Shown one piece after another: positions 43,464-64,000 of a DNA stretch of 64,000 nt (its first letter is position 1; every line of letters begins with the position of its first letter). Below the pieces are notes generated by a model, which saw only the letters and a list, made by a program, of their open reading frames with translations, had not been told where the DNA came from and did not search any database. Location of the stretch: positions 35,356 through 99,355 of the forward strand of contig CAWCJJ010000030.1 in NCBI GenBank assembly GCA_963795895.1, given 5' to 3'. Made by a program: the position numbers and the translations under genes. The DNA is from an uncultured bacterium (GTDB taxonomy: Bacteria > Verrucomicrobiota > Verrucomicrobiia > Chthoniobacterales > SZAS-18).

Positions 43464-45038
43464 ATGCCGACCTTCTCCTACCGCGCCCGTGATGCGCAGG
43501 GCAACCTTGTGCAGGGAACCCTCGAATCACTCGACCGCGCCTCCGCGATCCAAGCCATCGAGCAAAAGCGGTGCGTCCCCGTGAAGATCGAGCCGCTGGC
43601 ACTCTCAGGGACCGCCACGTCTCCCACGTCCCAACCACCGACCGCAAAAGCATCTTCTCCCTCTCGCCGCACCGACAAGCGGGAAAACCAAACCAACGCG
43701 ACCCCCTCCCTCGGCTCCAACTCCACCACCCACTCCAAACCCGTTGGCACCACCGAGCTCGCCGCCGCGACCTCCAGCCAGCGCCTTTCCCACGGCCAGC
43801 GGCTCTTCTTCACCGAACAACTCGCCTACCTGCTCTCGGCGGGGATGACCCTGGACGAAGCGCTGGGAGTCCTGGTGCGCCGCCTAAAACAAGTCGATTT
43901 GCAAAAACTCACCAAAGCCCTGCACCAGGGATTGCTCGAAGGCCGCAGCTTTTCGCAAACGCTCCGGGTCTTCCCCCGCATCTTCTCGCCCTTGTACACG
44001 AACCTCGTCATGGCCGGCGAGGCGAGCGGCGCGCTGGAGGACATCCTGACCCGCCTGGTCAGCCACCTGACCAACATGAAGAAGATGCGGGACACCGTCT
44101 CGCAGGCGCTCATCTACCCCGCGTTCCTGGTGATGGCCGGCGTGGGGCTGGTGGTAATTTTCATCACGGTGATGGTGCCGCGACTGCAAAGCTTTTTCGC
44201 GTCGAGCAACGGCGGCCCGGTCCTCCCCCTCCCCACGCGGATGCTCATCGCCGCCAACGACCTGATCGTGGCCTATTGGTGGGCGGCGGCGGCGGCGGTC
44301 ATGCTGGGGATTCTGATCTTCAAGCTGGCCACGCGTTCCGCCGAGGGGTTGATGCGCTGGGACCGTTTCCGCCTGTCGATCCCCGCGTACGGCTCGGTGG
44401 TGCGCTTCCAGTTTTACGCGCAGTTCGCGCGCACGCTGGGCACGTTGTTGCAAAACGGCGTCACGCTGCTGCGCGCCATCGAGTTGCTGGAGGACATGTC
44501 GGGCAACACCTATTTGAAAGCGCGCATGGCCGAGGCGCGGGCGTCATTGGTGGACGGCTCGAGTTTGTCGAACGCGCTGTCAAAGCACAAAATCTTCCCC
44601 GAACTCTTCGTGGACATGATGGCGGTCGGAGAGCAGTCCGGCAAATTCGCCGAGACGATGCAGATGATCGCGACCGTGTACGAACGCGAGCTGGACCAGC
44701 GGGTAAAAGCCGCGACGGCGGTGATTCCGCCGATCATCATTATCGTGATCGCGGTGCTGGTCGGGGCGGTGGTGTACGGCATCATCAGCGCGGTGTTCAG
44801 CGTGACCTCCGGACTGCAGCACAGCGCGCGGTTGAGTGTTCTTCTGTGTCTTTCTGCAGGTCTGTTGTACGTACAGGCTATCAGTCCTTGTTTGCAGGTT
44901 TACAATTTAACCCCAACCATACCTGATATCTTGAGGGTCGTCAGGATCATCTACAAATACGTGCATAACGTAACCTCCATACGGCCAATTTCCCGAGATC
45001 AGCGCATCCCGATTATTTGGAAAGGAGAATTGAAATAA
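43464..45038 (+). CDS. GspF/PilC family inner-membrane platform protein with a non-native C-terminal extension
   Basis: MPTFSYRARDAQGNLVQGTLE start and two GspF-type repeats (LAYLLSAGMTLDEAL.., FARTLGTLLQNGVTLLRAI..). After ..AVFSVTSGLQ (~44820) the ORF runs on ~70 codons into AT-rich sequence antisense to gene 44907..45533. Confidence 0.82.
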   Translation: MPTFSYRARDAQGNLVQGTLESLDRASAIQAIEQKRCVPVKIEPLALSGTATSPTSQPPTAKASSPSRRTDKRENQTNATPSLGSNSTTHSKPVGTTELAAATSSQRLSHGQRLFFTEQLAYLLSAGMTLDEALGVLVRRLKQVDLQKLTKALHQGLLEGRSFSQTLRVFPRIFSPLYTNLVMAGEASGALEDILTRLVSHLTNMKKMRDTVSQALIYPAFLVMAGVGLVVIFITVMVPRLQSFFASSNGGPVLPLPTRMLIAANDLIVAYWWAAAAAVMLGILIFKLATRSAEGLMRWDRFRLSIPAYGSVVRFQFYAQFARTLGTLLQNGVTLLRAIELLEDMSGNTYLKARMAEARASLVDGSSLSNALSKHKIFPELFVDMMAVGEQSGKFAETMQMIATVYERELDQRVKAATAVIPPIIIIVIAVLVGAVVYGIISAVFSVTSGLQHSARLSVLLCLSAGLLYVQAISPCLQVYNLTPTIPDILRVVRIIYKYVHNVTSIRPISRDQRIPIIWKGELK

Positions 45039-45533
45039 ATGTGTGAACCCAGCCTCGGTTAATGTTCTTCCTTGGCGGCGGATCGAAACTTTGTTATGCC
45101 AGTAGAATGGGTATCCGCCCATTTTGCTGTTGTGGTAGATGTTTGAATCCAACCATCCATCTTCATCTCTCTCTTCAGGGTCCAACACAAGGGCCTTTGA
45201 GGTAAGCGGCGAAATCAGTGTGGATTTTACCCGGGATCGAATGGACTTGCCGTGTACTACAAATTGGATCAATGGGGCATCCGCTTGCGAATAGATTGTG
45301 CCGCTATGTTTGGGGAGAGATCTGTTTGATGCAGCCCTCTCCTCGAAGGAATTGAAGATAGATATTTCTTTGTCATCTCCATTCAGCTTCAAGGTTGCGA
45401 AGTATTTGGTGCATGGGAATACTTGCGCCGGCATAACGCCCGCCGGGGGAAATCCTCCGATTCGATTTCCTTCCTGCGAATCCGATGCGAGTATCCGGAT
45501 GGGACGACAGAACGCCGCAAAGTCTGTTGGCAT
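44907..45533 (-). CDS. YwqG/DUF1963-like protein, paralog 3
   Basis: NRIGGFPP.., SKMGGYPFYWHN and HLFQFSFPNNRDALISGNWPYGGYVMHVFV are the same three blocks as in 48064..48699 and 53737..54370. The gene is AT-rich. Confidence 0.6.
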   Translation of the reverse strand: MPTDFAAFCRPIRILASDSQEGNRIGGFPPAGVMPAQVFPCTKYFATLKLNGDDKEISIFNSFEERAASNRSLPKHSGTIYSQADAPLIQFVVHGKSIRSRVKSTLISPLTSKALVLDPEERDEDGWLDSNIYHNSKMGGYPFYWHNKVSIRRQGRTLTEAGFTHLFQFSFPNNRDALISGNWPYGGYVMHVFVDDPDDPQDIRYGWG

Positions 45534-45576: not shown

Positions 45577-46612
45577 CGAAAGTTCCGGCATGTTAAACCA
45601 AGGCGTAACGGGTGCCATCCTAAAGAACGACCTCACCAGTTCCGTCTCGGCTTGTACGGCGCTCATGATGGAGAGTGTGGTCGCCCTCATTGTCGCCTTG
45701 CAATCGATCGAGAGCTATCCCAGCCTTTGCTTGAGATGGTTCCAGACCTGCTCGTCCGGGTTGAGGTCCGGCGAGTACGCCGGCAGATGGGCGAGGTGGA
45801 TCTCCTCGTTTTCCTTGACGAACGCCTCCACCCGCGCCGAGCCGTGGCAGCTGGCGTTGTCGGCCACGACGATGATCGGGCGGCCCGCGTCGGCGCGCAG
45901 GTCCCGCAGAAAGGCGACGAACCGCTCCGAGTCCATGCGGCCCTCGATGACCGCGAAGCGCAGGTTCCCGCGCGGGCTGACCGCGGAGACCGGGTTGAGC
46001 CCGAAGCGGTCGCCGCTCTCCGCCACCACCGGGGTTTGTCCCCGCGCGCCCCAGGTGCCCCCGCGCGGGTGGTCGCTTCGCACGGCGCTCTCGTCCACGA
46101 AGTAGAGGTCCGCGCCGACGCGCTTGGCCAGCCGCCCCAGCTTGGGAAAGGGCGCCGCAGGTACTCCGCGCGGGCGCCGGCGTCCTGCTTGTGGGAGCGG
46201 CGCGCGGGAAGCCGGGGGGTGAGGCCCGGCTCCCCGAGCAGCCGGCAAACCGCCCCCTTGCTCAGCTCCACGCCCCTTTCCCTTTGGAGCACGCCCCGGA
46301 CGACCGCCAGCGTCCAGAGGCGGAACTCGAACCCGTGGCGGCGGGGATCGTTTTGGGTGACGGCCCCGCGCAGCCAGGGCGCACCTCCGGGGTCGCCTTG
46401 CGCGGTCGCCCGCTGCGGGGCCGGTCGAGCGGGGCGGCCCGGCCCCCGGCGCGGTGGCGCGCCAGCCAGCCAAAGAGCGTGCGCATGGGGATGTCGTTGA
46501 CGCGCGCCACGACGGCGGCGACCGCGTTGCTGCGCCGCTCCAGCAAGATCGATTGCTTCGGGTCCATTTGCCAGTAGCATAACGGCTGGCGTTCAACATG
46601 CGAAGATTTTCG
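45577..46612 (-). mobile_element. IS630-family element, copy A (transposase frameshifted)
   Basis: Terminal repeats cgaaagttccggcatgttaaacc (45577..) and cgaaaatcttcgcatgttgaacg (reverse complement at ..46612). The transposase pieces are MDPKQSILLERRSNAV.. and ..YFVDESAVRSDHPRGGTWGARGQTPVV..IVVADNASCH..SPDLNPDEQVWNHLK, spread over three frames. Confidence 0.85.
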
Positions 46613-46646
46613 TAAATCGCAATGTGGAGCATTAGTCAAATAACGA

Positions 46647-47090
46647 CTACTTTACCGCTGCTGGAGTGCTCACTCTGAGCAATACGTATCCTATATCCTC
46701 GGCGATGAAAATCTTTGCGTCAGTGCCTCTTTCGGGAGCAACCCAGACGCCCGATTGAAATGTTAAGTGTTGAGGCTGGTTAATAACTCTACCCTGCTTG
46801 GAAAAGTCAAAGAAGTTCAGCGTATTGATCATGGTCACATGATCTTTTTCCAAAGACCAATTCCCAAAGTTTTTATAAAGAGAATTAGTTCTTAACTCGT
46901 AATTCTTTCTATCGTGAAAGAGTTCTTGCTTGTAAGTTGAATTGTCATCCAGCAACCATGATTCAATTTCTCCAGATTTATACATGTACAAGTACTCTCC
47001 ACTCACCTCCTTGGTCGTAAGGGGCGACAACTCGCAGCTATTAAGCAACAAAGCGCATAATAACAACATCAAAAGTTTACGGGAATGCAT
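46647..47090 (-). CDS. lipoprotein, candidate immunity protein
   Basis: Signal plus lipobox LLCALLLNSC. Very AT-rich. It lies immediately downstream of the secreted toxin candidate. Confidence 0.6.
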   Translation of the reverse strand: MHSRKLLMLLLCALLLNSCELSPLTTKEVSGEYLYMYKSGEIESWLLDDNSTYKQELFHDRKNYELRTNSLYKNFGNWSLEKDHVTMINTLNFFDFSKQGRVINQPQHLTFQSGVWVAPERGTDAKIFIAEDIGYVLLRVSTPAAVK

Positions 47091-47135: not shown

Positions 47136-47830
47136 TCAAGTTGTAATTGGTTTAGATTGTATGCATTGGTCCATCTGTACCAAATGGATTATCTCCAGCA
47201 CAGATGAACCGTAACTTATAATATGCGGAATAGGCGGCAAGTGAGTAGCCGAAGTTGCACTTAGATTATCTGTTAGCTGCACATTCACGCTAGCGTCAGT
47301 ATGGTCAGCATTTGAAAAACCAATAAAAGTACTCACTCCGGCAATGCTACCCTGAAGAGCGCGGCAGGGTTGCTGCCCAATGCGTCTCCCGGAAAATCAA
47401 CAAAACCATAATAGAGTGGGTTCAAATCGTCTAACCTGCGTCCGGTTGGAACCGATTCACTGAGGTGGTTCTCATCTGGATTTGCTGAATTTAGAAGACC
47501 GCTCATGGCTGCTCTTTTGGGAGCCAGTCTGAACATAGTCCGATTGAATCATTTGTTGGCCCAGCACACTTGTTTCATCAAAAGTGCGAGTGTCTGAGGG
47601 TCCTGTTCCCGTAGTCCATTCGTAGAACACCTGATTAGCAGTCACATGTTCATCATCCGACCATTTGGTCCAGTTGCCGCCCGCCCGCCGGGCCCAGCGC
47701 GCGGATCGCGTCGTGGTAGTCCAGCGTGCCGTCGGCCCGCCAGGCGAGCCTCGCGCAGCGGCTCCCCCCAGCCCGGCAGCGCCGTGGCCACCAGCCACAA
47801 CAGCAACAGAACAAAGCGCGCGATTGACAT
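47136..47830 (-). CDS. small Sec-leader toxin candidate (unknown C-terminal domain), several frame changes
   Basis: It starts with MSIARFVLLLLWLVATALPGWGEPLRE, nearly identical to the leader of the RHS protein at 53574. It continues across frames as ..DGTLDYHDAIRALG.., GNWTKWSDDEHVTANQVFYEWTTGTGPSDTRTFDE.., ..LNSANPDENHL..LNPLYYGFVDFPGD.. and ..STFIGFSNADHTD.. Confidence 0.5.
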
Positions 47831-48063
47831 CCGGGATTCTAGAGTTCGGGCCACCGTTCAGGGGAGGTCTTCCAGCAGGTTCATTGTGTACACACCCTAA
47901 GTTCGATTTTATCCATTTTCAGAGACGCACGCCACTGGAGAACAATTTGTAAGACGGAAGTTATTGCAGGTCGCGCAAAAAAGACATCCATAAATTCCCG
48001 GCGGCTGGCGCGCAACGACTTGCGCCTCCTCGGGGGCGGTTGTGAAAATTGGATAAAGTCAAG

Positions 48064-48699
48064 CTAAGCCCAGATATATTTGAATTCGGTCGTCTCGCCT
48101 ACGATCTTTACGAATAGATGAAAAATCATTAGACCAAATGGCCAATTTACATCAAGAAGTGTATCCGCGTTTCCTGGAAAAGTTAACTGAAGTATGTGAA
48201 CATACCCAGCTGAGGTGATCTCGTTCGTAAGCGCGTAAGCATATGATCCAGCATCCTCAAAATAAACGTCCCCGCCTAATTTACTACCAGGCCATTTTGA
48301 TTCCGGGTCGTGCGGATTGAGATCCTTGATAGCAGACCCAACCCTTAAGCGGTGCGCCGGTATAGATGAAGCTAGTTGCTTATCACGCGATCTCACTGAG
48401 TGAGGATGAACAACCATCTGAACAAATGGGCTGTTAGAACCATGAATCTTACGACAGTTTGTCCAACTGCTATTTACGTCTGAAGCAATTGGAGAAAGCC
48501 AGATAAAGAGGGACAACTCATTCTTATGGAACCAAGGTATCGTCAATAAGTACTCAGACCCTTCTTTTCGTAATTTTTCAGGTTTGACATTCACCGGAGC
48601 ATTACCTCCAATACGTGGTCCAAGGTCTCGATCGATCTTTGTGATAGTTAACGGCCTGCATTTACCCTGAACAAAATTTATTTCATTAATCAATTGCAT
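48064..48699 (-). CDS. YwqG/DUF1963-like protein, paralog 1
   Basis: GPRIGGNAPVNV, GSKLGGDVYFEDAG and HILQLTFPGNADTLLDVNWPFGLMIFHLFV. This is the [SK]-x-GG ... LLQ-like ... W-x-G pattern of the YwqG family. It is an intact, AT-rich, 211-aa ORF. Confidence 0.6.
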   Translation of the reverse strand: MQLINEINFVQGKCRPLTITKIDRDLGPRIGGNAPVNVKPEKLRKEGSEYLLTIPWFHKNELSLFIWLSPIASDVNSSWTNCRKIHGSNSPFVQMVVHPHSVRSRDKQLASSIPAHRLRVGSAIKDLNPHDPESKWPGSKLGGDVYFEDAGSYAYALTNEITSAGYVHILQLTFPGNADTLLDVNWPFGLMIFHLFVKIVGETTEFKYIWA

Positions 48700-48778
48700 A
48701 GGACTCCTAATCTAGCAGCGTTAGCCATTGAGTCGTTCAGGAATGTTTCAACATGATATTCTGGAACTCCCGCCCTAA

Positions 48779-49219
48779 CTACAATGCCGTCAGGTAATTC
48801 GTAAAATGTTGACCATTAGTGTCTTGCGGATACACGACTTTTTCTGCGGTCTTGTGCCATTCCGACCGCCTGAGGTGTTTTTCCGCCATTTTCCTACTTT
48901 TTGAGGTCTGCGGACGGGTTTCAACCCCAAATTCACCAATTACGGCCTTAAATTGAGGCAAATCGTCCTGTTTATCCTCGCTTCTCCCTCCTACAAGCGA
49001 CCAATTACCTGACGGCATTGCCGTTAGGGGACCGGGCATTTTGAGGAACTCAAGGCCGCAGCGAGGGACATACTTATCTGCGAAGCGCGAAGAATTGAAA
49101 CCAATGATCTGAATCCAACTGCCTTCTCGCCGCAACAACTCGCTTCCAACCTGTCGCCACGGTGGGCGCAACATTGGTGCAAATGACTTCACTACCTTGC
49201 TCAATTCGCCAGATTTCAT
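48779..49219 (-). CDS. DUF4304-like hypothetical (immunity-type) protein
   Basis: The N-terminus VVKSFAPMLRPPWRQVGSELLRREGSWIQIIGFNSSRF.. resembles the DUF4304 pattern. The gene is AT-rich. Confidence 0.4.
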   Translation of the reverse strand: MKSGELSKVVKSFAPMLRPPWRQVGSELLRREGSWIQIIGFNSSRFADKYVPRCGLEFLKMPGPLTAMPSGNWSLVGGRSEDKQDDLPQFKAVIGEFGVETRPQTSKSRKMAEKHLRRSEWHKTAEKVVYPQDTNGQHFTNYLTAL

Positions 49220-49242
49220 GGGTGAATCACAGTAGTTGGAAC

Positions 49243-49288
49243 GGTGGGCGCAAGCCCCGCTTGCGCACTATGTCCTATGAAGTTTAAT
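49243..49288. mobile_element. orphan terminal fragment of the IS5/DDE_Tnp_4-like element
   Basis: gcgcactatgtcctatgaagtttaa matches the right end of the complete element (gcgcactatgtcctatgaagtcta at 57792..57815). No transposase is adjacent. Confidence 0.7.
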
Positions 49289-49580: not shown

Positions 49581-49903
49581 CAGTTTCTCCCGAGTTGAAG
49601 TTTGATGCAAGTTCGCAGGGCAACATTGCTCGCGGGAATATCCGCGCCTCCTGCGTGCAAGATATCCGCAGCAGTGGTAAGGCAGCTATTGCTCCGCATA
49701 TTGATATTGTTACTCCACGAATTAGTTTTATTGCACGTACACGTCCCAGAGCATTAGATTTTTCACATTGGGTCCGCGTTTGTTCCTTGGCACAGAAGGG
49801 AGAGGGCCAAGCCGTAGAGCGTTGTCGGCATCCAACACAACAAAATAACCGAGCGCGCGAAGCCCATGCAAAAATTCGCTCTAAATTGGTGTTGGGCATC
49901 CAT

Positions 49904-51245
49904 CTAAGGGGATCGGCATTGAATGTTATACCCGTTGAGGGTGGATGCGGATGTCCCACCATCGCAGGTCGGGGTGGCTGCTGCAAGCGCCCCTCCAGCC
50001 CACGCGCTTGGCTGCGCCCGCCACCACGCGCCCTTTGGCGTAGGCCTTTTTGACCAGGCGCACCAGCGGCTCGCCGCCCCGCCAAGTCATCGTGGCGGCG
50101 TAGCCCAGGGCGGCGGCCGCGTCGGTGAGCGGCGCGCCGTTCCAGTGCTTCTCCAGCGCGGCCCAAACAGCTCCACCGGGTTGTACTTGCTGTGGTAGGG
50201 CGGGTAGTACACCAGGTGGAGGCGCAGGCCGCTCCGGTCGGCGAACTCCGCCATGCGCGAGGGAGGAAGCGGGTTCTGCGCCCGCCGCTCTCGGGTCCGT
50301 TGTCCAGGTTGAGGACCAACTCCTCCACGCCCGGGTGGAGGTGCCCGTGGCGGCGCCACCAGCTCTGGATGCAGTCGCCCATCAGGTCGGCGGTCTTGGC
50401 CGGGCTGGTGGAGAAGGTCAGGTCCAGCTCGCCGCCCTTGACCTCCAGGATGCCCACCGGGATGAGCTTCGCCTTGTCCTGGGCCAGGTCGTGGTCCAGG
50501 GCCGCCACCGGCCTGAGCCCGCGCGCGCGGCCCCGGCGGCTGTAGTCGCCCAGCACCACGGTGGCCTTGGTGTCCACGCTCAGGCGCAGGAACCTGCCCC
50601 CGCTCGCGTCCGCCGCCGCGTTGGCGGCGCTGGACGTTTTGGAAGATGGCGTCGCACCCGGGCGTTTTTTTTCGGGCCGGGTCTTGGCCACGGCCGCGCA
50701 GGCGGTAGCCCAGCCGGTTGAGCACCCCGTTTAAGGTCCGCTCGGCGGGCACCTCCACCGGGTCCCAGCCCTTTTCCTCGATGAGCGCGCGCCGCAGCGA
50801 GGCGGCGCCCAGGCGCGTGTGGGCGAGCGTGCCGCGCAGCCGCGGGTTGGCCTGCGCCTGGGCGTGGCCAGCGCGCGCACGTCGGCCGCCAGTTCGGGCC
50901 ACTTCTGCTCCACGGGCCGGTTGCCCCGCGCGCGAAAGGCGTCGTCCAGGCAGACGATCCCGGTGCGGTTCTCCTGTTGGCCCTGGGCGACCGAGTGGCG
51001 GTTCCACCCAGGAGCGTCTCCGCGGCCCGCGCGCCGCCGCCAAAGAGCGCGTCAGCCACCCGCCCCTGGAAGGAGCGGCGCTTGTGGCCGGTGAGCAGGC
51101 GCGAACCGTCAAGCAGCAACTCCCTGACGACGGGGGTGAGGTCGGGGTGGACATGGCGGGTGGGCCGGGCGATCATCCGCGCACCATAGCGCGCGGCGGG
51201 TTCAATGCGAACTTGAGGGATAACATTCAATGCCGATCCCCTTAG
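49904..51245 (-). mobile_element. ISAzo13-family insertion sequence (transposase frameshifted)
   Basis: Perfect 26-nt terminal inverted repeats ctaaggggatcggcattgaatgttat (49904.. and reverse complement ending 51245). Transposase fragments are RLSVDTKATVVLGDYSRRG.., LVLNLDNGPESGGRRT.. and LHLVYYPPYHSKYNPVE.., typical of the ISAzo13 DDE family. Confidence 0.85.
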
Positions 51246-51284
51246 GTGTTGAAGACTTGATGCGGAGGTGATTGTGAAGATGCC

Positions 51285-51956
51285 TTACTGAAGAAGGGTC
51301 GTTTTCAATCTCTCCCACCGCACATACTGCGCAATGTGTGGCGGCATCGGGTTGGCAACCCGGAGTTTAGCTAGTTGCGAATTAATTAGGCGCCTTGCAG
51401 CGTCTTTCATCCCCTCTATAACGTAGATTGCCGCTAGTTTTTCAATTCTTTGATCTAAGTTGAGAGGCAGTCGCAGTTTGTTATCGTTCATGCTGGCAGT
51501 ATCGGACATTGTTCTTCTCCTCTTCGGAACCAAGCCGAACTCGCTGTTCCCGCACGTCCGCGTAGTAATCTATCTCATCAATGAGTTGCAGTTTCAATGA
51601 TCCTAAGGTATTAAATCTACCAATGAGGGGCAGTAAATACTTCCTACAAGTCGTGAGAATCTGTTCGACCACGTCTCCTGGGGTTTCGGGAGAGAATTGC
51701 CACTCCATGTATGTCTTTCCCGAGCTCAGGAAATGCGCTGGAACCATGAAAGCGGAGACAAGCCTACTCCTTTCTGTTCTCCAGCAGCTTCTAAGTTCCT
51801 TAAACCGAATCGCTGCGTTGGCATTTATCAGTGCAGAGTTTCCTCGTGAACGTGCGGGGAAGCGTAGACATTTGCGATATGGTGGGTATTTGCCTTTGAT
51901 AAATTAATGTCTGCACCTCGTTTGAATCCAATTTCTGACAGCGGTTCAACCAACAT
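51285..51956 (-). CDS. DUF4304-like candidate immunity protein for the RHS toxin, two frame changes
   Basis: It starts ~27 nt after the RHS stop with MLVEPLSEIGFKRGADINLSKANTHHIANVYASP... It continues as ..MEWQFSPETPGDVVEQILTTCRKYLLPLI.. (ORF 51481..51747) and ..LRLPLNLDQRIEKLAAIYVIEG.. (ORF 51285..51533). Confidence 0.45.
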
Positions 51957-51982
51957 TCCGTCCAATTTGTTTTCTATTGTGA

Positions 51983-53574
51983 TCAAGGACCTTGCCATAA
52001 TACTTTTGCCGCACCGTTAATTGTAACTCCGGATTGTTTCCCGACTGCATTCGCGCCGCCATTCATGTTGATCCATCTGTCGCCACTGAACTGCTGACTG
52101 TCCGAACGCGAGAAAGCCCCTTCTGAAGACTTGATCTCGAATCCCCAGTTCAGGCTGCTAGAATCGGATAAAACAGCGTCATAACGTCGCAACCCAAACG
52201 GTGTACCAAAGCTCACTTCCTTATCCACGAGGCTCCATCCATTATTCAACGCGCTTTGAACAAAATCATCAACAGCTGCAGAACCCGGAGAGATCTGACC
52301 TTCTGATTTCGGGGTGAACTTTCCCTGCGCGTCACGTCCCTGCTCGATAGCTCCAGTGTATGAATCGCCTCCACCGTTTGGGCTAATCGTGTCAGCTACA
52401 AACGGGCCATTGCCTGGTTCTTTAACTGCTCCACTTAGATTTGCCGGTCGGTAATGTAGTTGCCCAGGCGCGAAGTCGCCCTCGACCACCCTGGCCGCCT
52501 GGTTCTCGGCGGTGCCGAACTCGCCGAACGCCGCCACAAAGGGGGCCGCGGCCATCGTGGCGTCGCCCCTGGCCCGGTTGAGCAGCAGCGCGGCGGTGAG
52601 CAGATCCCCGTGGTCCCAGGCCGCCCAGGCGCCCTGCAGGTCGTTTTGCACGGCCACCTGCGAGTCGTAGCCGCTGAAGGCGCGCGCGGCGTCGTACAGG
52701 AGGCCCTTGGCCACGAACTCGCCCATGCCGTCGCTCTGGGCGATCCAGTGCTCGAAGGTCCGCTCGTTGAGCTTGGGGTCGAGGGCGCCCCGCCCGGTCT
52801 CCGAGGCCACGCGTCCGTCGGCGTCGAGGCGGTTGACGGGGTCGCCGCCCGCGTAGGCGTAGAGGTCCGCGCTCGCCCCATGGCCCAGCGGGTCCGCGGA
52901 GAGTAACCTTCCATCCAGCGGGTCGTAGTGGCGCGCCCCCAGCCAGTAGAAGCCCGTGGGGTCCGGCGCCGCCCGCGCCAGCCCAGGCTCTGGGCCAGGG
53001 TGGTTGTGCCAAGGAAAGGGGTGGCCGCGCCCGCGCCCGGCAGCGCCCCGTAGCCCCCGTAGCGCGCGCTCTGCCAGGAGAGCGCCGCGCCGCCGCCCGC
53101 GCCCTCCACGCGCGCCTCCGCGTGCCCGAAGGCGTCGAGCACGTAGCCCGCGCCCGCCCCGTCGCTCTCGCGCACGCTGCCCTCCAGCCCGCCGATGCCC
53201 TGCGCGCCGCCGTAGCGCCCGTCCAGGTCCGGGCCGTAGAAGAGCCACTGGCGGGCGCCCCCGTCTCTGCGCCACCGCCACCTCCAGGAACTCCACCGCC
53301 GGGTCAAACTAACGCCGGTCGCCGTGGCCTGCGCGCCCTGCGCCGCGCCCCCGCTCGCCACCGGGGTGTGGACCGTGCGCAGCCGCCGGCCCAGGCCGTC
53401 GTAGATCGCCCGCCAGTCGTAGCCGGCATTGCCCGTGTCGCGCGCCTGCGCGCTGACCAGCCGGTCTAGCGCATCCCAGGCGAGCACCTCGCGCAGCGGC
53501 TCCCCCCAGCCCGGCAGCGCCGTGGCCGTCGCCGCCAGCCACCACAGCAACAGAACAAAGCGCGCGATTGACAT
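51983..53574 (-). CDS. short Sec-leader RHS-core protein with PD-(D/E)xK-like C-terminal toxin domain, several frame changes
   Basis: The leader is MSIARFVLLWWLAATATALPGWGEPLRE, followed by YD-type repeats (YDGLGRR, LFYGPDLDGRYGGAQGIGGL). The RHS core end is GFYWLGARHYDPLDGRLLSADPLGHGASADLYAYAGGDPVNRLDADG. A ~270-aa tail then ends with RRYDAVLSD...WGFEIKSSEG (a D...ExK nuclease signature). Confidence 0.75.
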
Positions 53575-53736: not shown

Positions 53737-54370
53737 CTAAACCCAGATATATTTGAATTCTCTTGGTCGTCTCGCCTACGATCTTTACGAATAGATGCGA
53801 AATCATTAGACCAAATGGCCAATTTACATCAAGAAGTGTATCCGCGTTTCCTGGAAAAGTTAACTGAAGTATGTGAACATACCCAGCCGAGGTGATCTCG
53901 TTCGTAAGCGCGTAAGCATATGATCCGGCATCCTCAAAATAAACGTCCCCGCCTAATTTACTACCAGGCCATTTTGATTCCGGGTCGTGCGGATTGAGAT
54001 CCTTGATAGCAGACCCAATCCTTAAGCAGTGTGCCGGTATAGATGAAGCTAGTTGCTTATCACGCGATCTCACTGAGTGAGGATGAACAACCATCTGAAC
54101 AAATGGGCTGTTAGAATCATGAATCTTACGACAGTTTGTCCAAGTGCTATTTACGTCCGAAGCAATTGGAGAAAGCCAGATAAAGAGGGACAACTCATTC
54201 TTATGGAACCAAGGTATCGTCAATAAATACTCAGATTCTTCTTTTTGCAAGTCTTCGGGTCTGACATCCACCGGCGCATTACCTCCGATGCGCGGTCCGA
54301 ACTCTTGATCGCTCTTTGTGATGATCATTGGCTTGCATTTACCCGGCACAAAATTCATCTCATTTATCAA
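53737..54370 (-). CDS. YwqG/DUF1963-like protein, paralog 2 (4-bp insertion near the 3' end)
   Basis: About 90 percent identical by eye to 48064..48699. The insertion tctt (gaattcTCTTggtcg versus gaattcggtcg) shifts the frame just before the expected stop (53737..53739), giving the artificial run-on ORF 53309..54370. Confidence 0.6.
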
Positions 54371-54413
54371 TAGTATATGTCTATTAATACAACGGCGTTA
54401 GCCATAGAACCGT

Positions 54414-54860
54414 TTAGCTTGATGCGTTCAGGCCAATCAACTTACGAAACACTGGCATCCTCCCGGCGATATCTAGTACTACCTTTCGCAATTCTTCGTT
54501 TGAAGACACTTGTTCTGATTGACGTTTAACAGCCTCTGCCAATTCGCATTGCAGGTCTAGACTGTTGATTGGCAAATCAATTCTGTGGCTGGCGGAAACA
54601 ACGAGGTAACACCAGATTATTTGGAGCACTCGACTAAGTTCTCCCTTCTCAATAAGTGATGATACTACTTCCTGAAATGCTTCGGCAGCTTTCGCCCACC
54701 GGCATGTTGAAGCAGACCAGTTCATAAGCTGACTTGTAATCAGTATTAAATCATGTTGTTCATGGTAGGTGACACTTGGAATAAAGTAAATGCCTTCACC
54801 CAAGATCGCCTCTTTGATGTGGTTTGCGTTAAACCAATTGAAAATAATTTCGTTCTTCAT
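54414..54860 (-). CDS. hypothetical AT-rich protein, immunity-like position
   Basis: 148-aa intact ORF. Its start overlaps the end of a short toxin-like remnant that abuts IS630 copy B. Confidence 0.45.
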   Translation of the reverse strand: MKNEIIFNWFNANHIKEAILGEGIYFIPSVTYHEQHDLILITSQLMNWSASTCRWAKAAEAFQEVVSSLIEKGELSRVLQIIWCYLVVSASHRIDLPINSLDLQCELAEAVKRQSEQVSSNEELRKVVLDIAGRMPVFRKLIGLNASS

Positions 54861-55074
54861 TTAGCGTCCCTGTATAATACTGGTTTTGACTCCTGGGTCG
54901 GTTTTTAGGGGCACTATCAATATTTCCTTCGGTCAACCCGCCCCACGTTACACCAGACCCTGGTAGGAAGTACATATTTCCGCTCACTGGCAAGCGTAAG
55001 TTTGCCGCGAATGGATTTTCGACATCAATTCGTACGAGGGATCCGCTTGAAAGTTGTCCGTGTATTGTCCTTTA

Positions 55075-56125
<1,051 letters not shown>

Positions 56126-56206: not shown

Positions 56207-56725
56207 TTAGAGTAATTTCTTACTTTCCTCCATGTCATTCGCTGCGTCCTGAGGTCTATTTAGAAGTAAATTGATTTGCGAACGCCACAGGAATAATGAA
56301 CCGTCTGTATTATTACATCTGATTGCGGCGTTGAAATCTTCCAGTGCCTTGTCATACATTCCGACGATTTTGTGGTTCAATCCTCTCAAAGCGTAACCTT
56401 TGAAGCTGCCGCGCTCCAGAGCGAGATAATTACTAAGCATACGAATGGCCTCGTCACTCCTTCCAAGGTCACCAAGAATTTTACCAGCTTCTAACAATCC
56501 CTTCGAAAGTTCAGGGTCAAGTGTTATAGCTTGGATTAGGTACTCTAATGCCTTTGTTTTTTCGCCGCGATTAGCTAAGCACACAGCAAAGTAGTATTTA
56601 ATTTCCGGGGCACTCGGAAATGCCTCTAACAACTTCCCGAACAATACCTCTGCACTCAAGTAGTCCTTCACGTTAAATAATTCTGACGCTTGTTTAACCA
56701 AACGTCTTCGTTCTTCTGTTGTCAT
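56207..56725 (-). CDS. TPR repeat protein
   Basis: 172-aa AT-rich ORF with repeated A..Y/F..A..L.P helical-pair pattern (YFAVCLANRGEKTKALEYLIQAITLDP..). Confidence 0.7.
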   Translation of the reverse strand: MTTEERRRLVKQASELFNVKDYLSAEVLFGKLLEAFPSAPEIKYYFAVCLANRGEKTKALEYLIQAITLDPELSKGLLEAGKILGDLGRSDEAIRMLSNYLALERGSFKGYALRGLNHKIVGMYDKALEDFNAAIRCNNTDGSLFLWRSQINLLLNRPQDAANDMEESKKLL

Positions 56726-56790
56726 GTTTTAGCGAGCTATTGTGGACAGAATGGATTGAACCGGCTTGTTTATCAAGTATATCATTCAAT

Positions 56791-57814
56791 AGACTTCATA
56801 GGACGTAGCCGCCAGAGCCGGGGCTTGTGGTAGGGGTGGGAGCATGGACATGGACGTCGTTTTCCGCAAGCCCAAGCTGCTGCGCGCCCTCACCACCCTC
56901 GATCCCGGGGAGTTCGCGCGGCTGGAGGCGGGCCTGGCGGAGGCGCTGGCCGAGCAACGGGCCCAGTGCCGCCACGACGGCGGGGCGCGCCAGCGCGCCG
57001 CCGGGGCGGGCGGGGCGACCAGCAAGCTGCCCACGGCGCGGGCCAAGCTGTTCTTTTTGCTCTTTTACTTCAAGAGCTACCCGACCCGGGAGGCCATGGG
57101 CTTCTTCTTCGGCCTAAGCCAGCCGCAGGTCTGCGAGTGGGTCAAGGCGCTCACGCCGCTGGTCAGCGCGGCGCTGGGCCGGGAACTGCTGCGGCCCGCG
57201 CGGCGCCCCGCGGACCTGGGGGCGCTGCTCGCCGAGACCCCCGAGTTGCTGCTCATCATCGACGGGGCCGAGCGCCCGGTTTGCCGCCCCAAGGACCCGG
57301 AGGCGCAAAGCAAGGACTACAGCGGCAAGAAGAAGTCCCACCGCAAGAAGAACCTGGTGGTCTCCTCGCGCCGCAAGGTGGTTTACCTCGGGCCGACCGC
57401 CCCGGGCAGCGTGCATGACAAGCGGCTCGCCGATGAAAGCGGGCTGGTCTTCCCGCCGGGCACCCTGCTGTTCAAGGACACGGCCTTCCAAGGCTACGAA
57501 CCGCCGGGCATCGACACCCTCCAGCCCAAGAGGAAGCCGCCCAAAAAAGAACTCCACCCTATCCAGAAAACCATCAACCAGATCATCAGCCGAACGCGCG
57601 TGGGCGTCGAGCACGTCATCGGCGGCATCAAGCGCTGCCACATCGTCGCGGACATCTTCCGCGCCCGCCGCCGCGACTTCGTGGACGAGGTGATGAGCGT
57701 GGCCGGAGGTCTGCACAACCTGCGGGTGGCCACCCGCCAGCCGCTTGCCGTGTAAGAAAATCGCGGCGGCGGGCGGAGCTTGCCCTCACTCGCGCACTAT
57801 GTCCTATGAAGTCT
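56791..57814 (+). mobile_element. IS5-family (DDE_Tnp_4 / Harbinger-like transposase) insertion sequence with 3-bp target duplication
   Basis: Terminal repeats agacttcataggacgtag / ctatgtcctatgaagtct. AAT flanks both sides (56788..56790 and 57815..57817). The intact transposase ORF 56844..57755 has LLIIDGAE, FKDTAFQG and VGVEHVIGGIK (DDE). Confidence 0.88.
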
Positions 57815-58355
57815 AATATAGATGTGACCCCATGGACCGATGCTCCAAACTTAGAACCGGGCGCCGATCCTTGAGCGTAATCCCTGGCGCTTCACCCTCG
57901 CGCAGCGATGTGAACTCCAGCAGCATGTCCCGGATGGAGGGGAACATGTAGTAGCTTTTCACCGACACGCCAAGGCACTGGTCCTCGTAGCCGAAGATCG
58001 AGCCGTACCTCTCCGCGTTGAGATCAATGCCGAAGGAGAAACCATTCAACTCAAACCACACAAACAGGAAGCACTGGTCGTAGTAGGGGAAAACGCCCGG
58101 CAGTTCGGGCGCGTCGAACATCTGGTTGATGTTGGCCCCGAAGGGGTCGTCGTAGAGGTAGAACTTCTGGCGCGGCGGCAGCACGAAGTGGCCGCCGACG
58201 ACCCGCTCGAAGAAGATGCGCGCGTCCTCGGGCAGCGGATGGCCGTGGGAGCGGTCCCCGGATGGCTGGTCGCCGGCGCGCAGGATCAGGTCACGGCCCA
58301 CTTCGGCGGCGAAACGCTCGATGAGTTCATCCATTGTCCTATTCGCGTGATTCAA
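57813..58355 (-). CDS. SMI1/KNR4 (SUKH-1)-like immunity protein
   Basis: ..LPEDARIFFERVVGGHF.., ..FGIDLNAERYGSIFGYED.. and ..MFPSIRDMLLEF follow the SUKH pattern. The stop codon is formed at the IS junction. Confidence 0.65.
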   Translation of the reverse strand: MNHANRTMDELIERFAAEVGRDLILRAGDQPSGDRSHGHPLPEDARIFFERVVGGHFVLPPRQKFYLYDDPFGANINQMFDAPELPGVFPYYDQCFLFVWFELNGFSFGIDLNAERYGSIFGYEDQCLGVSVKSYYMFPSIRDMLLEFTSLREGEAPGITLKDRRPVLSLEHRSMGSHLY

Positions 58356-58484: not shown

Positions 58485-58965
58485 TCAGTCCAGGGTGCGT
58501 TCCAGCCACTCTGAAAACGAACGCGCCACCACTGGCGCCGGCACGCTGAATGGAACCATACCCCGGCGCCCAGGTGGGCGAGATCGAGCCGAATTGTCGG
58601 CGTTCAAGGTCGATGCCGATGATCGAGCTTAGATCATCGCATTGGGCGCGCGAGCAGGTAGCAGTCGTCGAAGTGCTCGATGCGGTGGGGATTCGCGCCG
58701 GCTTCCATGATCTCGTTAAGCCCCGCTCGAAAGGCTCCGCGAGCAGCTCCCAGCCGTTGACCGGATGGTCCCCGCCGTAGAGCGGGAGACCGTCGTTGCC
58801 CCGGCTCACGTAGATGTCGCCGCCCGCGAAGGCGTGGTAGAACGCGGCCACGTCGCGGGCAGGCGTGCGCCGGGCTTGGTTCGCGGGGGCCGGCGTGCGC
58901 GGTATAAGCTTGCAGAAGGGCTCCCGCAGGAGCCGCTCGATGAGCTGATGGATCGTCATGGGCAT
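58485..58965 (-). pseudogene. second SMI1/KNR4 (SUKH)-like immunity gene, at least two frame changes
   Basis: MPMTIHQLIERLLREPF..VAAFYHAFAGGDIYV.., then ..HFDDCYLLA / DDLSSIIGIDLERRQFGSI.., then the tail PFSVPAPVVARSFSEWLERTLD-stop, in three frames. Confidence 0.5.
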
Positions 58966-59241: not shown

Positions 59242-62200
59242 CTAACCTCTGTCCTTTGCACTCACGCTATATCCCGTATAATTCGCCTTCAACCAAGCAT
59301 CAAAATAGAAATGATGTTGCGGGTTCTTTGAGATTACTGCCGCTCCGGCTCCGTCGAATACCTGTTGATAATTGATCGTGTTGTAAACAGCACTTCGGCC
59401 TCTCTGGATTTTATTGGTACCATAAAGCATGGTTTGCCCCGCCGTATTGTGCACAAGGGCCGCCACGTCACCCGTGACTACGAAAAACGTATCGGGACCG
59501 TCAACGTCGAGGTTGAACGTCATGGTCTTCCCTGCCTCCGCCATCACCGTCGTCACCACGGGGGCGGTGCCCGTGCGGCCAAGCAGATGCATGCCTTGCT
59601 TCAAGTCGCCAGCGGGTACCGCCTTTTTCTCCGGTCCAAAACGGATGATCGAGGGTGGTGATAACGCTGCCGCCGTTGTCTTCCCGGCCTTCATCCTTCC
59701 AGCCGACGCAGAGTGGGGAAGAAGTGAAACTAAACATCCGGCTCAACACCATCTGCGGAGTGGCGCTCCCCCCCTTGGAAGGATCGTATCCCAGCACCCG
59801 GTCCCCCTTTTCAAGCATTTCAATCGCTTTGGTGGTTCCGTCAGCCATGACAACGCGCGTGCCCGCCCCAAAGCAACCCAATGGCGAGCGGCACAAGGAC
59901 CCGAGACGGCGGCGGCGCGGGCCTCGTCCGCGCTGCGGGCGACACGACCGAAGTTTATCGCCACTCCTTTTGACACCTTTTGTAGAAGCACGCTCTCGGA
60001 AGAAACCTTGGACGCCAGTTGCATGAACTTTGCCGCGGCCCCGTGCCCTCCCTTAACACCCTGCCAATCACCCCGGCCTTGGCGATCCCGGCGGTGAGCA
60101 CGCTCACTCCAACCTGCTCGCCGATGTAACCGACGGCATACCCGGCAAAATAGGCGCTGAGATAAACGGGGTCTTCGGCATCCTTGCCCAGCAGCAGGCT
60201 TAATCGATCGACCTGCGTGTTTGTGAAATCTCCGATGATCTGGTCAATCATCGCTGAAACATTGCTCTTCAAACCTTCCCAGCCCAGGTCCTTGAGCGCC
60301 GAAAAACAATGGTAGAGTTCCGACGCTACAACCCAGGGTTCGAACTCGAGTTTGAACAGAAATTTTTCCAGGTCGCCAACGGCAAGCAAGGTGCTGACGA
60401 CACCTTGCACATCGCCTTTCACGCCATCCCACAGGCCGAAAACGACTCCCTCGCCGACCGCGCTGTTGGCCGTGATGATGCCCTGCACCCAATGGAGCAG
60501 TGTTTTTGCTACCAGGCCGCGATTGCGGATTTGTGTCAGGGGCGATAACTCGGCGCTGCGCACTTGCGTCGGCACGGGATTGAAGGTCGCTTCGTCATAT
60601 GCGAGAAAGCCGAGCTCATTTTCACCGTCGTCGTAATTCTGGGCTGGCGCGGCGGGCTCGTCGTTTCTGACGATTGGGCGCTCACTGCGGGGAGCGGGTT
60701 TCGCTTGATAGGATAGATACGGTTTTGACCGGGACGCGCTCTATTGAGGGCGCCACCAACCGGACCGTTGTCATCGGGGTCCGAGGCGCCGCCTTTCCAC
60801 GCGAGAATCGGCGGCGCGGGGTCACCCGCGACGAACGCCTCGGTCGCGGTCACCAAGCGTGCGAAATCACCATCGGCCTTGAGATGACGTGCGGCTTGCG
60901 CAATCACCTTGCCATCCTTTTTCAACTTTATCGTGAAGTCGCGATCTGATTTACACAGGCGTAAAACCGTAATTTATCGCCTTCCTTAACGAAGGTGACT
61001 TCCTGCTTTGCGGCCTTCGTCGCTTTTTCCTCCCCTGCGGCGTAATTCTGCGCCTCGCGGTCGCTGAAAATGTCGCTTTCGCTTTCGTAGATCGAAGTCT
61101 GGGTGTCACCAAACAACTTTGTGTAACTCCACCGGTTCCCCCCGCACTCCATTTCGACATCGACTTCGCCGAACACATTCGGAATCGTTCCCGTGACCAT
61201 GCGGTCGCGCGAGTCGAGGTCCATCGGCAGCATCAGGACCGCGCGGGGAGACCAGCCCACTTGCTGCGGATTGCCGTCCGCGTCATCCTGGAAAATGGCT
61301 TTCTCCGCGTTGGCTAGAATCAGAGTGTCGGGGCTGATTCCCACCGCGCGCGACAGGTGCCAGTCCGTCGAATCGCTCAAGAGCGTGTTCAGGTTGGTGA
61401 TATCCCAGAACGCGTCGTCCCCGCCGGCGTTGTCGTTCTTGCCCCAGAAGGTCGCTTCCAAGCTGGCAAAACCCTCGTCCTGCGGATTAGCACCGTCGTG
61501 CTCCCATTCGATGGACTCGCCGACGATCCAGTTAAGGTTGGTGATGTCGTAGGCGCGGCCGTAACCCACCGGAAACTGCGGTGCCACGGATGAAAGCACG
61601 CCCAGGTCGATCGGGCTCGTGTCGGTGGCCGACCAATAAACCGGATGATACCGCGCCGTCGCGTCCGGACGGATGCTGTCGTCGCCGATGACATCAATGT
61701 CCGCGTAGCCGGCGATCCCGCCCGACTTGTTGATGGCTTCCGGGGTTGCTGTGCAAGCCCGCCGGCAGCACGCCCAGGTCCGTCAGGACCGGGTAGCCGT
61801 GCAAGGAGAAGGTGGCCGTGCCCGGTTCGTAGCGAAAGGCGTGCGTGGGCTCCGCGTTGTTGAAGAGCCTGGCCTTTTGAGTACGCTGCTCCAGGCTGTC
61901 GCCGGTCACTTCGGAGGCGCTGAAGGGACGGGCGGCATAGCCCGCGATGGTGTCCAATTCGCTGATGACTTTGGACACGCTGGTCAACCGCCCTTGGCCG
62001 AGATCGGCCCCGCCGTAACTGAGCGGCCCGAGCCAGTCCCAGGGCAGCGTCGAAGCGGAAACGTCCCCCACGGCGGCCATGCCCAGCGAAAACCGGCTGC
62101 GCTGGTGAGCAAAACGTCGTGGGCGATGAGCGTTTTTCCAGTCGTTCCGTAGCCGCGGCCGTTGCCCCGTTCCGATGATTTTGCCCATTGCAGAACGCCG

Positions 62201-64000
62201 TCGGCGTCAAAATCGTGTCCCTCGACCAGCACGCTCAATACTTCGGTGGGCCGGTCGTCATCGACCCGGTTGTTACCGTTGACATCGTCGGGCCGCATGT
62301 AAACCGAGAGGGTCGCGGCGACCTGGTTATGGGAATTGACGTCCCACAAGGAATCCAGGGACGGGAAATCCTTGTGGACGGCCCCGAGATCGTTGTTGGT
62401 GCCGACATCGTAGGCCCAGCCCACCGCGTCGGGGCGCTCGGGAACGGGGCATTCTTCGGAAAACGGTAGCTACCAGGGCGAAGGTTGGTCACCGGCTCGA
62501 GCTGGAGATCTTACGGGTTGCCTTGCTGCAAGCGCCAGCGCACACCCTGGGTGTGGCAGCAGCACGCCCGGTTCACCCGGCGTAGCATTGAGCTTGCGTT
62601 CACCTACGACCAGCGAACCGTCGCGCGTGAGACGGTGGGCGGTGAAGTCGGGGTCGTTGATCTGGGCGGTTTGCCCGTCAAGTTGGCGGAACACGTACTT
62701 TCCGCTGCCCGGGTCGCCCATGCGCAGGAGCACGCTGCCGTTGTCCGCGATCCACAACGGCTCGAAGCCCTCGCCCAGGTCCGTAACTGGGTTGTTGCCG
62801 CCGACATCCTGGGTCACGCGCCGATCACGACGCCCAGCGGTGCGGCGGGTTCTGGACTGCGCCTTTTCGCCGGGATGCGCAAGACTTTGAACAATGCCGC
62901 CGCCGGCGAATTCCTGCCCGAGGTCCAAAGGAACAAAGTGCGGCAAATCAATGCGGGTGGTGGCTGCGGTCTCATCGGAATAGGCACCCCGCGCCCCGCT
63001 TCCGTCGCGGGTCAGGTAGGCGACCCGATAATTATAGTAATGCTCCGGTTCCACCTGATGGTCGTAGAACTCGAAGTTGGCGGTGGCAGGCGAGTCGCTG
63101 ATCGCGCCGTCCTGGCTGTCCATAAAGTTGACAACGGCGATTTCCTGCCAAGAGCCGATCTTTGAGATCCGTCTTTCCACCACCGTGGCGGCAATGGGGT
63201 TGCCCGGCTGCGGGGCAGCCCAGGAGACATGGATCTCGCGGGCCTTGGTGGCCACCGCATTCGCGCTGGCGGGTTTCAGGACCGTATTGCCGACCGCGCG
63301 GCCCACGTACAGCTTGACGGTGGTGGCTTCCGTTTGCAGGCCGCTGTCGTCGGTGGCGGTCGCTTCGATCTCGTGCCAGCCGGGGGTCGGGACCCAGGTG
63401 CTGGTCAGCAACGCGCTGGCGGACTGGGCGACGGGCACATGGTCGATCAGCAATTCAATTCCTGTGATAGACCCGTCGGCATCGCTGGCTTGCACCTGGA
63501 TGGTGATCCCGGTCTGTGTGTTCGGGAGGACCGTGCCATCCGTCGGAGCAACGATGGAAACTTGCGGCGGCAACAGATGGCTTGCCTGCACATTCACCGG
63601 ATCGCTCTGCGCGAGAAGGTTGCCCGCCGCATCGTAAGCGGTCGCCACGAGTTGGTAGGGACCCGCGGTTTTCGGCGTCCAGTTGTCCACGGGTTTCCCG
63701 GTCGGGTTGTTGCCGACGATCGCGCCGTTCGCCAGGAACCTGACGGTTGCGACCCGGTCGATGCCGCTCTCGACCTGCGCGACGAGGCTCGTGGGTTGGT
63801 CTAGGTTGAGCAGCGCGCCGGAGGAGGGCGCCAGCAGGCGTAGCAGGACGGGCAAAGGCGCCCGCATGTTGATTTGCACGGGAGCGAGGTGGTTGACTGT
63901 CCATCGGCCGCCGTAGCCACAGCCGTCAGGGCATGGCTGCCTACCGCCACGTTGTTCCAATCCAGAGCGTAGGGACGTGCGCGGGCCGCACCGAGATCCG
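59242..64000 (-). CDS. 3' part of a giant secreted polymorphic toxin (Ig-like/FN3-like repeats, Hint domain, short C-terminal toxin); 5' end beyond window; many frame changes
   Basis: Pieces on the minus strand form one colinear protein: ORFs 62470..63960 (repeated Ig-like units, ..ATAYDAAGN.., ..ATATDDSGL..), 61984..62424, 61694..62188, 60928..61599, 60536..60925 and 59955..60575. These are followed by the Hint domain CFGAGTRVVMADGTTKAIEMLEKGDRVLGYDP...HPFW...TFNLDVDGPDTFFVV..ALVHN (59446..59875) and a ~65-aa tail. Sequence stays open in-frame to base 64000. Confidence 0.7.

Follow-up and report, generated by a model that had tools for sequence, protein, structure and literature searches.

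What lies downstream of gspF in an uncultured Chthoniobacterales-like verrucomicrobium, at a site where related loci carry gspG? The question is raised by a stretch of 64,000 nucleotides from contig CAWCJJ010000030.1 (hereafter the window), in which housekeeping DNA gives way, from ~44.8 kb onwards, to a patchwork of small AT-rich genes, GC-rich blocks and insertion sequences (ISs). In an initial annotation, made from the letters of the sequence, this patchwork was described as a polymorphic toxin/immunity island with a Hint-domain toxin, immunity genes, orphan cassettes and IS interruptions. The description is upheld here: an RHS core and a PT-HINT domain pass their profile thresholds, and two toxin–immunity pairings recur elsewhere, with the same toxin–immunity order on unrelated contigs for both. 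The locus, roughly 19 kb of which fall in the window, belongs to a soil-type verrucomicrobial genome and is very probably a Sec-dependent (signal-peptide type) polymorphic toxin locus inserted right after the gspF stop codon. The island and the genes on which this reading is built are as follows.

44,837–64,000, strand not assigned: accessory polymorphic toxin/immunity island, delimited by its GC mosaic and its absence downstream of gspF in relatives; the right end lies beyond the window
51,983–53,574, minus: RHS toxin; Sec leader, terminal RHS fragment, RHS core and ~125-residue D...ExK domain; three frame changes
51,282–51,998, minus: putative cognate immunity gene of the D...ExK toxin; overlaps the toxin stop (51,983); frameshifted
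48,064–48,699, minus: TYPP/YwqG-like putative immunity paralog 1; 211 residues, intact; family contexts in L020, L022 and L028
53,738–54,370, minus: TYPP/YwqG-like putative immunity paralog 2; 88% identity to paralog 1; a 4-nt insertion near the 3' end leads to read-through
44,907–45,533, minus: TYPP/YwqG-like putative immunity paralog 3; 208 residues, intact; 29% identity to paralog 1
48,696–48,818, minus: 3' remnant (~40 codons) of the cognate toxin tip of the TYPP-like family, located by tblastn with the L022 tip
59,242–64,000, minus: large toxin gene; Big_7, fn3-like and PT-HINT regions; 5' end outside the window; at least nine frame changes or stops
58,485–58,962, minus: SUKH-like putative immunity gene 2; sub-threshold SMI1_KNR4 match; at least three frameshifts
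57,813–58,355, minus: SUKH-like putative immunity gene 1; 180 residues, intact; paralog of SUKH-like gene 2

Toxin domains and partner genes

The RHS toxin had been named as such in the initial annotation. Its uncorrected open reading frames (ORFs) gave no Pfam match; the frame-corrected protein passed the RHS core model TIGR03696 with 51.1 bits (cut-off 32.5), and the name was retained. Similarity to the full-length RHS protein of an outside contig (L020) starts right after a 29-residue hydrophobic leader, and the stretch upstream of the core aligns only with the last part of that protein. As read from the sequence, the gene product is a leader fused to the terminal ~190 residues of an RHS shell, followed by the core and a tip, and is not a complete RHS protein.

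The last ~125 residues share 59–69% identity with the C-termini of five other proteins. Carriers of this D...ExK domain include RHS-core proteins (the window protein, P0158 and P0159) and short proteins with signal-peptide-like leaders (P0156 and P0157), and one short carrier is encoded downstream of a 3,893-residue RHS protein. The same C-terminal domain on differing N-terminal bodies, the pattern that marks polymorphic toxins, was thus found for this domain and also for the 'DAHE.LQ' domain described below. The same tips cap giant RHS proteins as well as short proteins that have their own leaders, which suggests that the 'orphan' cassettes of this lineage may be expressed alone. The invariant residues of the D...ExK domain include YDAVL...FEIKSS, with D66, E80 and K82 (motif D-x13-E-x-K). 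An AlphaFold2 (AF2) model of low confidence (predicted local distance difference test score, pLDDT, of 55.7) has an α-β-β-β core with a helix at residues 32–44 and strands at residues 48–58, 61–70 and 75–81, and places D66 on one strand and E80-x-K82 on the next. The best local matches of this model in Foldseek were the R2 protein, DrdV and AF1548, none of them significant; the top match, the R2 protein, had a probability of 0.97 and an E value of 0.09 over 44 columns, for a query model of pLDDT 55.7. All three carry restriction-endonuclease-like domains, and the D...ExK domain may itself be a nuclease of the restriction-endonuclease fold. No Pfam Tox-REase model matches it.

The gene that overlaps the RHS toxin stop is its putative immunity partner. 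Two frames of positions 51,885–51,282 (E = 2e-26 and 4e-20) show homology to the gene directly after the D...ExK domain in L023, L025 and L026, and in L024 a short start fragment of the same gene overlaps the toxin stop at the contig end. The initial annotation had called both this gene and ORF146 (48,779–49,219) DUF4304-like. That label was dropped, there being no Pfam match for ORF146, for the corrected 51.3–52.0 kb protein or for its L023 homologue, and the two window genes show no mutual similarity. L023 (205–3,231) has, close to its D...ExK cassette, a bona fide SUKH_5/SMI1_KNR4 gene and also a TrwC relaxase gene, a context that suggests that the cassettes travel on mobile elements.

The second pair was defined through the three YwqG-like paralogs. 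A search of 1.84 billion proteins with a profile built from them retrieved 285 cluster representatives, of which nearly all are stand-alone and ~205 residues long. Six outside contexts were read, and in four of them the YwqG-like gene abuts or overlaps the stop of the upstream gene. Three of these upstream genes encode toxins (RHS core and HINT in L020, HINT in L022, a 3,668-residue RHS protein with HINT in L028); the fourth context is a single JGI contig, its upstream product unread. No toxin lies directly upstream of the YwqG-like gene in the L021 and P0010 contexts. Paralog 3 shares 53% identity with the L020 gene located after the RHS-HINT toxin. The L020 and L022 toxins end in homologous C-terminal domains (E = 1e-15) to which the L028 tip can also be aligned, with DAHE.LQ and GVPEEH as shared motifs; the domain thus occurs on RHS-HINT proteins of differing lengths. 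A stump of the same domain is present in the window itself: a tblastn search with the L022 tip located a remnant at 48,818–48,696 (57% identity over 30 residues, E = 1.3e-7) that ends at the start codon of paralog 1, and paralog 2 is likewise preceded by a remnant of the cognate toxin, a shorter one ('SMANA'). Because of these toxin-adjacent contexts and the tip stumps upstream, the YwqG-like genes are best read as orphan immunity genes. The L028 contig (5,001–10,606), like L023, continues from a giant RHS toxin gene through the TYPP-like gene and small ORFs to transposase genes.

The products of these genes could instead serve the leader-bearing toxins of the genes immediately downstream as chaperones or adaptors. 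The TYPP superfamily has been proposed to act as chaperone-like protein–protein interaction modules (PMC4275035, section 9), and in a duplicated unit of the island, described below, a TYPP-like gene is linked to the start of the toxin gene that comes after it. This alternative is nevertheless improbable, for the gene is found, on three outside contigs, touching or overlapping the 3' end of a toxin gene with one and the same C-terminal domain, which is the canonical immunity position, and a stump of that domain precedes the window copy. The genes downstream of family members, moreover, vary among the contexts read, and paralog 3 is followed by no toxin gene and abuts the end of gspF. An immunity role for these proteins is accordingly preferred in what follows.

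The relationship to YwqG is remote. The window paralogs gave no match to Pfam DUF1963 even at E ≤ 10; among their relatives three of 74 matched it, the best with E = 0.014 (not significant), and this was the only recurrent Pfam match. The sole match of the family profile in the PDB was 1pv5_A (YwqG), with E = 0.3, on the HKiGGxP motif. Across 74 sequences the conserved motifs are G31-G32-x-x-P35 (consensus GGxPP) and K140-x-G142-G143 (consensus HKxGGxP), with Q171 near-invariant, and the two halves of the family align only at the GGxP motif, at the same offset in both (P = 0.007). The TYPP superfamily is marked by a GGxP motif in each of two repeats together with a highly conserved Q (Burroughs & Aravind, 2014, PMC4275035). 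The AF2 model of paralog 1 is confident (pLDDT 94.6) and mostly β; a Foldseek search of the PDB with it gave nothing better than E = 0.08, and 1PV5 was not in the top 50. Of the initial 'YwqG-like' label, then, the shared motifs and the weak DUF1963 and 1PV5 profile signals stand, whereas neither Pfam nor Foldseek provided a match. A distant kinship with TYPP/YwqG is plausible from the sequences, as distinct from membership. A word-seeded homologue search with paralog 1 returned the query alone, and a family scan of metagenome contigs found nothing.

The giant Hint-domain toxin of the initial annotation was confirmed once frames were corrected. The encoded order is Big_7 immunoglobulin-like repeats and an fn3-like region, an unassigned region, PT-HINT (~59,446–59,890) and a short C-terminal domain. 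Big_7 was matched in Pfam with E = 3.9e-16, and the fn3 match is sub-threshold (E = 0.0096, 16.5 bits versus a cut-off of 25). PT-HINT (PF07591) scored 25.5 bits, below threshold, on a single fragment before frame correction; after two frames had been joined it reached 43.7 bits (gathering score 27.7), covering profile positions 5–136 of 137. The start of the Hint domain, 'C-FGAGT' with its Cys, and its end, 'LVHN' with its HN, can be read directly in the sequence. The middle of the protein gave no PDB sequence match beyond noise, the short C-terminal tip no family match, and a fragment of the toxin no relatives in a search of genome contigs. A PT-TG pretoxin domain considered at 59.9–60.6 kb was dropped, having no Pfam support.

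Two genes downstream of this toxin had been labelled SUKH. Hand-corrected SUKH-like 2 matches SMI1_KNR4 (PF09346) with E = 0.0015 and 19.6 bits, under the gathering score of 25.4, over positions 24–125 of 125. SUKH-like 1 had no match in Pfam, NCBIfam or the PDB and no homologue in 5.8 G proteins, and a PDB search with a SUKH-like profile gave no match beyond noise. The two genes are paralogs (E = 2.9e-7). The label therefore survives in a reduced form, with a SUKH relationship of both genes plausible from their sequences.

Boundaries and composition of the island

The window core (1–44,822) has a G+C content of 61.9%. From ~44,837 to 64,000, small genes of 41–50% G+C alternate with blocks of 64–77%; the lipoprotein gene has 41%, the three YwqG-like genes 43–48%, ORF148 and the TPR gene 43% each, the IS elements 64–71% and the RHS core block 77%. 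The alternation described from ~44.83 kb is borne out by these values, and the AT-rich example offered for it, line 46861, contains exactly 17 G+C (46,861–46,920). Each ORF in the proposed minus-strand gene order was found at its place, and all non-IS genes of the island lie on the minus strand.

The left edge is sharp, the homology of gspF to relatives stopping at the natural TGA (~44,834–44,836). The gspF gene adjoining the island has counterparts in an uncultured Chthoniobacterales metagenome-assembled genome (78% identity) and in 18 more verrucomicrobial loci (48–66% identity). The left flank (a surA-like gene, mfd, an aminotransferase gene, a sigma-54 activator gene, uppS, purA and gspF) is syntenic in 15–18 of the 19 related loci. 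In these loci (L001–L019) gspF is followed by a conserved, unassigned gene, here called X, for a protein of ~400–480 residues and then by gspG (major pseudopilin; T2SSG, E = 3e-26), ~1–3 kb past gspF; neither X nor gspG was found in the window. When the relatives were compared for presence or absence of the island, as the initial annotation had suggested, none of the 19 gspF loci had a match to the island ORFs (45–64 kb) in the 10 kb downstream of gspF. Because relatives have gspF-X-gspG at the island site, the island is accessory; on the left its limit is precisely defined. At this junction the island may have split a conserved type II secretion or pilus-like cluster.

In the window the reading frame misses the natural gspF TGA by 1 nt, so that GspF gains a 68-residue AT-rich tail (44,826–45,038) that enters the island and overlaps paralog 3 on the opposite strand. 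The tail is either the product of a sequencing error or a genuine C-terminal extension. In the purA–gspF intergenic region (43,136–43,271) there are two copies of a 39-nt near-palindromic repeat (CGCGACACGTCGCC...GGCGACGTGTCGCG), which could be a regulatory or REP-like (repetitive extragenic palindromic) element.

The rest of the window is housekeeping in character (trpE, dinB, NAD kinase, secA, aroB, pdxA, folE2, nrdR and topA). In the closest relative (L001, 19,558–21,299) the genes for DinB and a metallophosphoesterase lie downstream of gspF at a distance of 8–10 kb; in the window (6,833–10,104) they are inverted and ~35 kb upstream of it. A rearrangement has therefore taken place near the island insertion point. 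The initial annotation had reported no dedicated delivery genes, and in agreement with this no type V, VI or VII secretion (T5/T6/T7) genes were present among the window ORFs scanned, which are a part of the total. The gspF gene was considered for this role and rejected, being a syntenic core gene in relatives that have no island. The island is placed between gspF and the site of the relatives' gspG, beside the only general secretion genes of the window, which may or may not matter for export.

Cassette shuffling, insertion sequences and reading frames

The remaining features of the island were assigned as follows.

47,749–48,760, minus, and 53,487–54,440: copies 1 and 2 of a ~1 kb direct duplication; the copies diverge past the leader
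47,136–47,835, minus: small leader-bearing toxin candidate; first ~30 codons the same as those of the RHS gene; at least three frame changes
46,647–47,090, minus: lipoprotein-like ORF; 147 residues, lipobox-like LLNSC, hydrophobic leader
48,779–49,219, minus: ORF146, for which the 'DUF4304-like' label is unsupported
54,414–54,860, minus: ORF148, putative orphan immunity gene; intact AT-rich ORF
54,861–55,070, minus: possible 3' toxin remnant cut by IS630-B; ~80-codon open frame ending at the ORF148 start; no family match
56,207–56,725, minus: TPR protein; 172 residues; TPR_2 (E = 5.5e-15) and other matches
45,595–46,625, minus: IS630-A; DDE_3, HTH_29 and HTH_33 in three frames; transposase frameshifted
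55,071–56,110, plus: IS630-B; DDE_3 and HTH_29/33; transposase broken by a T29A48 run
56,788–57,817, plus: IS5-family element; DDE_Tnp_4 and HTH_Tnp_4; 303-residue transposase intact
49,901–51,248, minus: ISAzo13-family element; PF07592 in two frames; transposase frameshifted
49,255–49,288, strand not assigned: solo end of an IS5-like element; 88% identity to the IS5-like right end at 57,784–57,817

The duplicated unit consists of a toxin-tip remnant, a TYPP-like gene, a spacer and ~30 codons from the start of the toxin gene that follows. Its completely divergent 3' continuations are the signature of tip replacement by recombination, that is, of cassette shuffling. Displaced tips and orphan cassettes are thus represented in the island by the remnant at 48,818–48,696, the shorter one before paralog 2 and the ~1 kb duplication. 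The small toxin candidate gave no match in Pfam, NCBIfam or the PDB, and ORF146, ORF148 and the lipoprotein had no family matches in Pfam at E ≤ 0.01 and then at E ≤ 10. The lipoprotein is a possible immunity protein for the small toxin. The TPR gene, already named in the initial annotation, was confirmed by its TPR_2 match.

The array is interrupted by four IS copies and one solo end. Four IS families had been proposed; by Pfam there are three (IS630 twice, IS5-like/DDE_Tnp_4 and ISAzo13), because the orphan end belongs to the IS5-like type. The IS5-like terminal inverted repeats are 19 nt long (56,790–56,808 and 57,797–57,815; 95% complementary) and those of ISAzo13 32 nt (94% complementary), whereas the IS630 ends were set by copy-to-copy alignment alone. 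IS630-A and IS630-B are 84–99% identical over matched segments. The two copies are inverted relative to each other, with 8.4 kb of cassettes between them; their identity is 99% over one 83-nt segment and 83–96% elsewhere, which hints at recent gene conversion or inversion potential. A 96-nt tRNA-Arg(ccg) called by ARAGORN at 50,197–50,292 lies inside the ISAzo13 transposase gene and is most likely a false positive.

Could the mosaic be largely an artefact of a draft assembly in which pieces of contig were joined through repeated IS copies? The two inverted IS630 copies and the many indels would fit this, as would the T29A48 run (55,645–55,721) in the IS630-B transposase gene, which stands in for ~93 nt present in IS630-A. 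That block is probably an artefact of assembly or gap filling in its own right, being very odd for a 62% GC genome. As an account of the whole island, assembly error is very improbable: the cassette logic is coherent, a toxin tip being followed by an immunity gene with stop and start overlapping, and it recurs in other samples, on independent contigs; the left junction coincides exactly with the gspF stop; and a single 102,392-bp NCBI/ENA contig is recorded as the source of the same proteins.

A weightier question is whether the locus is still functional. Disruptions are far denser in the GC-rich island genes than in the core, with at least nine in the 4.76 kb of the large toxin gene, three in the RHS gene and at least three in the small toxin gene, compared with roughly one detected split gene per 7 kb of core. 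Most AT-rich small ORFs are intact, and cassettes have been truncated by IS insertions. These observations would suit a decayed toxin graveyard, now mainly a poly-immunity island, in which the toxin genes are true pseudogenes and the intact small genes (TYPP-like 1 and 3, ORF148, SUKH-like 1 and the lipoprotein) have been kept against the toxins of neighbours. Such decay is possible, although we lean away from it. Core genes are frameshifted as well, the essential purA, mfd and secA among them: purA (~42.66 kb) and mfd (~36.96 kb) are split, as is a gene at 32.7–33.6 kb, and secA (13.8 kb), pdxA (21.4 kb) and miaA (17.8 kb) are apparently split also or have a partial Pfam profile match, so that indel errors run through the whole window and many of the indels must be sequencing errors. 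Because core genes in this draft-quality sequence are affected too, frameshifts alone are no proof of pseudogenes. Two putative immunity genes are affected too, with at least three frame changes in SUKH-like 2 and at least one or two in the RHS partner gene. Homopolymer (454-type) errors found no support as the cause: the inspected junctions are without long runs, and the disruptions do not lie obviously at homopolymers.

We therefore return to the reading of the island as a Sec-dependent polymorphic toxin locus. In such a locus the toxins would be exported by Sec, possibly over the outer membrane by a type II secretion system (T2SS); HINT and the RHS core would free the C-terminal toxin autoproteolytically; each downstream small protein would bind and neutralize its toxin; and the orphan cassettes would provide a reservoir for recombination as well as stand-alone immunity. 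Several points weigh against this reading. The toxin–immunity function of the pairs is putative, and the nuclease-fold, SUKH and TYPP assignments all fall below significance. With most toxin ORFs multiply disrupted, the locus may be non-functional, and the T29A48 block indicates that the assembly is imperfect at the island. The RHS gene has no RHS_repeat match and only ~190 residues between leader and core, so that no complete RHS shell is possible. Finally, the N-terminus of the large toxin lies beyond the window, and so therefore does its export signal.

Comparison with known systems

The delivery route, called undefined in the initial annotation, can be placed in a recognized class, that of the signal-peptide (Sec/T2SS-dependent) RHS and HINT toxins (PMC3482391, Table 1). 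Polymorphic toxins, including this class, have been described by Zhang et al. (2012, PMC3482391, sections 5 and 41), together with the rows of immunity genes that earlier replacements of the tip leave behind. As in those systems, the window has a large toxin of several domains whose C-terminal tip is variable, an immunity gene directly 3' of it, solo toxin cassettes and immunity genes downstream, remnants of displaced tips, signal-peptide leaders without T5/T6/T7 genes, and HINT just before the toxin domain. It differs in that the two paired tips and most immunity genes match no Pfam Tox, Ntox or Imm family, in that the cassettes have their own Sec-type leaders, and in a heavy IS load and many broken reading frames. 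The known view of such systems is unchanged, because the island is a textbook polymorphic toxin locus; what it adds is two toxin–immunity pairs outside Pfam, documented with cross-contig evidence.

Against the restriction-endonuclease-like toxins (Tox-REase and other PD-(D/E)xK families), the D...ExK domain shares the D-x13-E-x-K motif and the modelled α-β-β-β topology, and it differs in having no Tox-REase match, a model of low pLDDT and Foldseek E values that are not significant.

The TYPP-like immunity family and its cognate toxin tip are the most interesting by-product of the locus. One putative immunity protein is β-rich and confidently modelled, with no PDB match by Foldseek and a motif-level likeness to YwqG/TYPP. 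With the TYPP proteins (TSR4/YwqG/PDCD2L/PDCD2; DUF1963; 1PV5) the family shares the GGxP pair, the conserved Q, a mostly β fold and the presence of several paralogs per locus. It differs in length (~205 residues, compared with 264 for 1PV5), its sequence signals are non-significant, and the searchable papers describe no such position next to toxin genes for TYPP; no paper tying YwqG/DUF1963 to toxin immunity was found in the searchable literature. That the ~205-residue family is both a divergent bacterial TYPP branch and a dedicated immunity family for the 'DAHE.LQ...GVPEEH...CP' toxin domain on RHS-HINT toxins is a tentative proposal, and in this combined form a rather unlikely one. If true, it would give bacterial YwqG-like proteins their first concrete functional context, as judged from the searchable papers, and would mean that the TYPP peptide-binding groove can be used to block a toxin.

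Enterobacterial rhs loci carry orphan rhs-CT/rhsI modules, and WapA of Bacillus subtilis is a precedent for Sec-exported RHS toxins. The window resembles the rhs loci in the order of an RHS core (TIGR03696), a variable toxin and an overlapping immunity gene, and in an orphan fragment that keeps core-encoding sequence, a potential handle for recombination. It differs in having no PAAR, VgrG or type VI secretion genes, in a leader fused directly to the ~190 residues upstream of the core and in its verrucomicrobial host.

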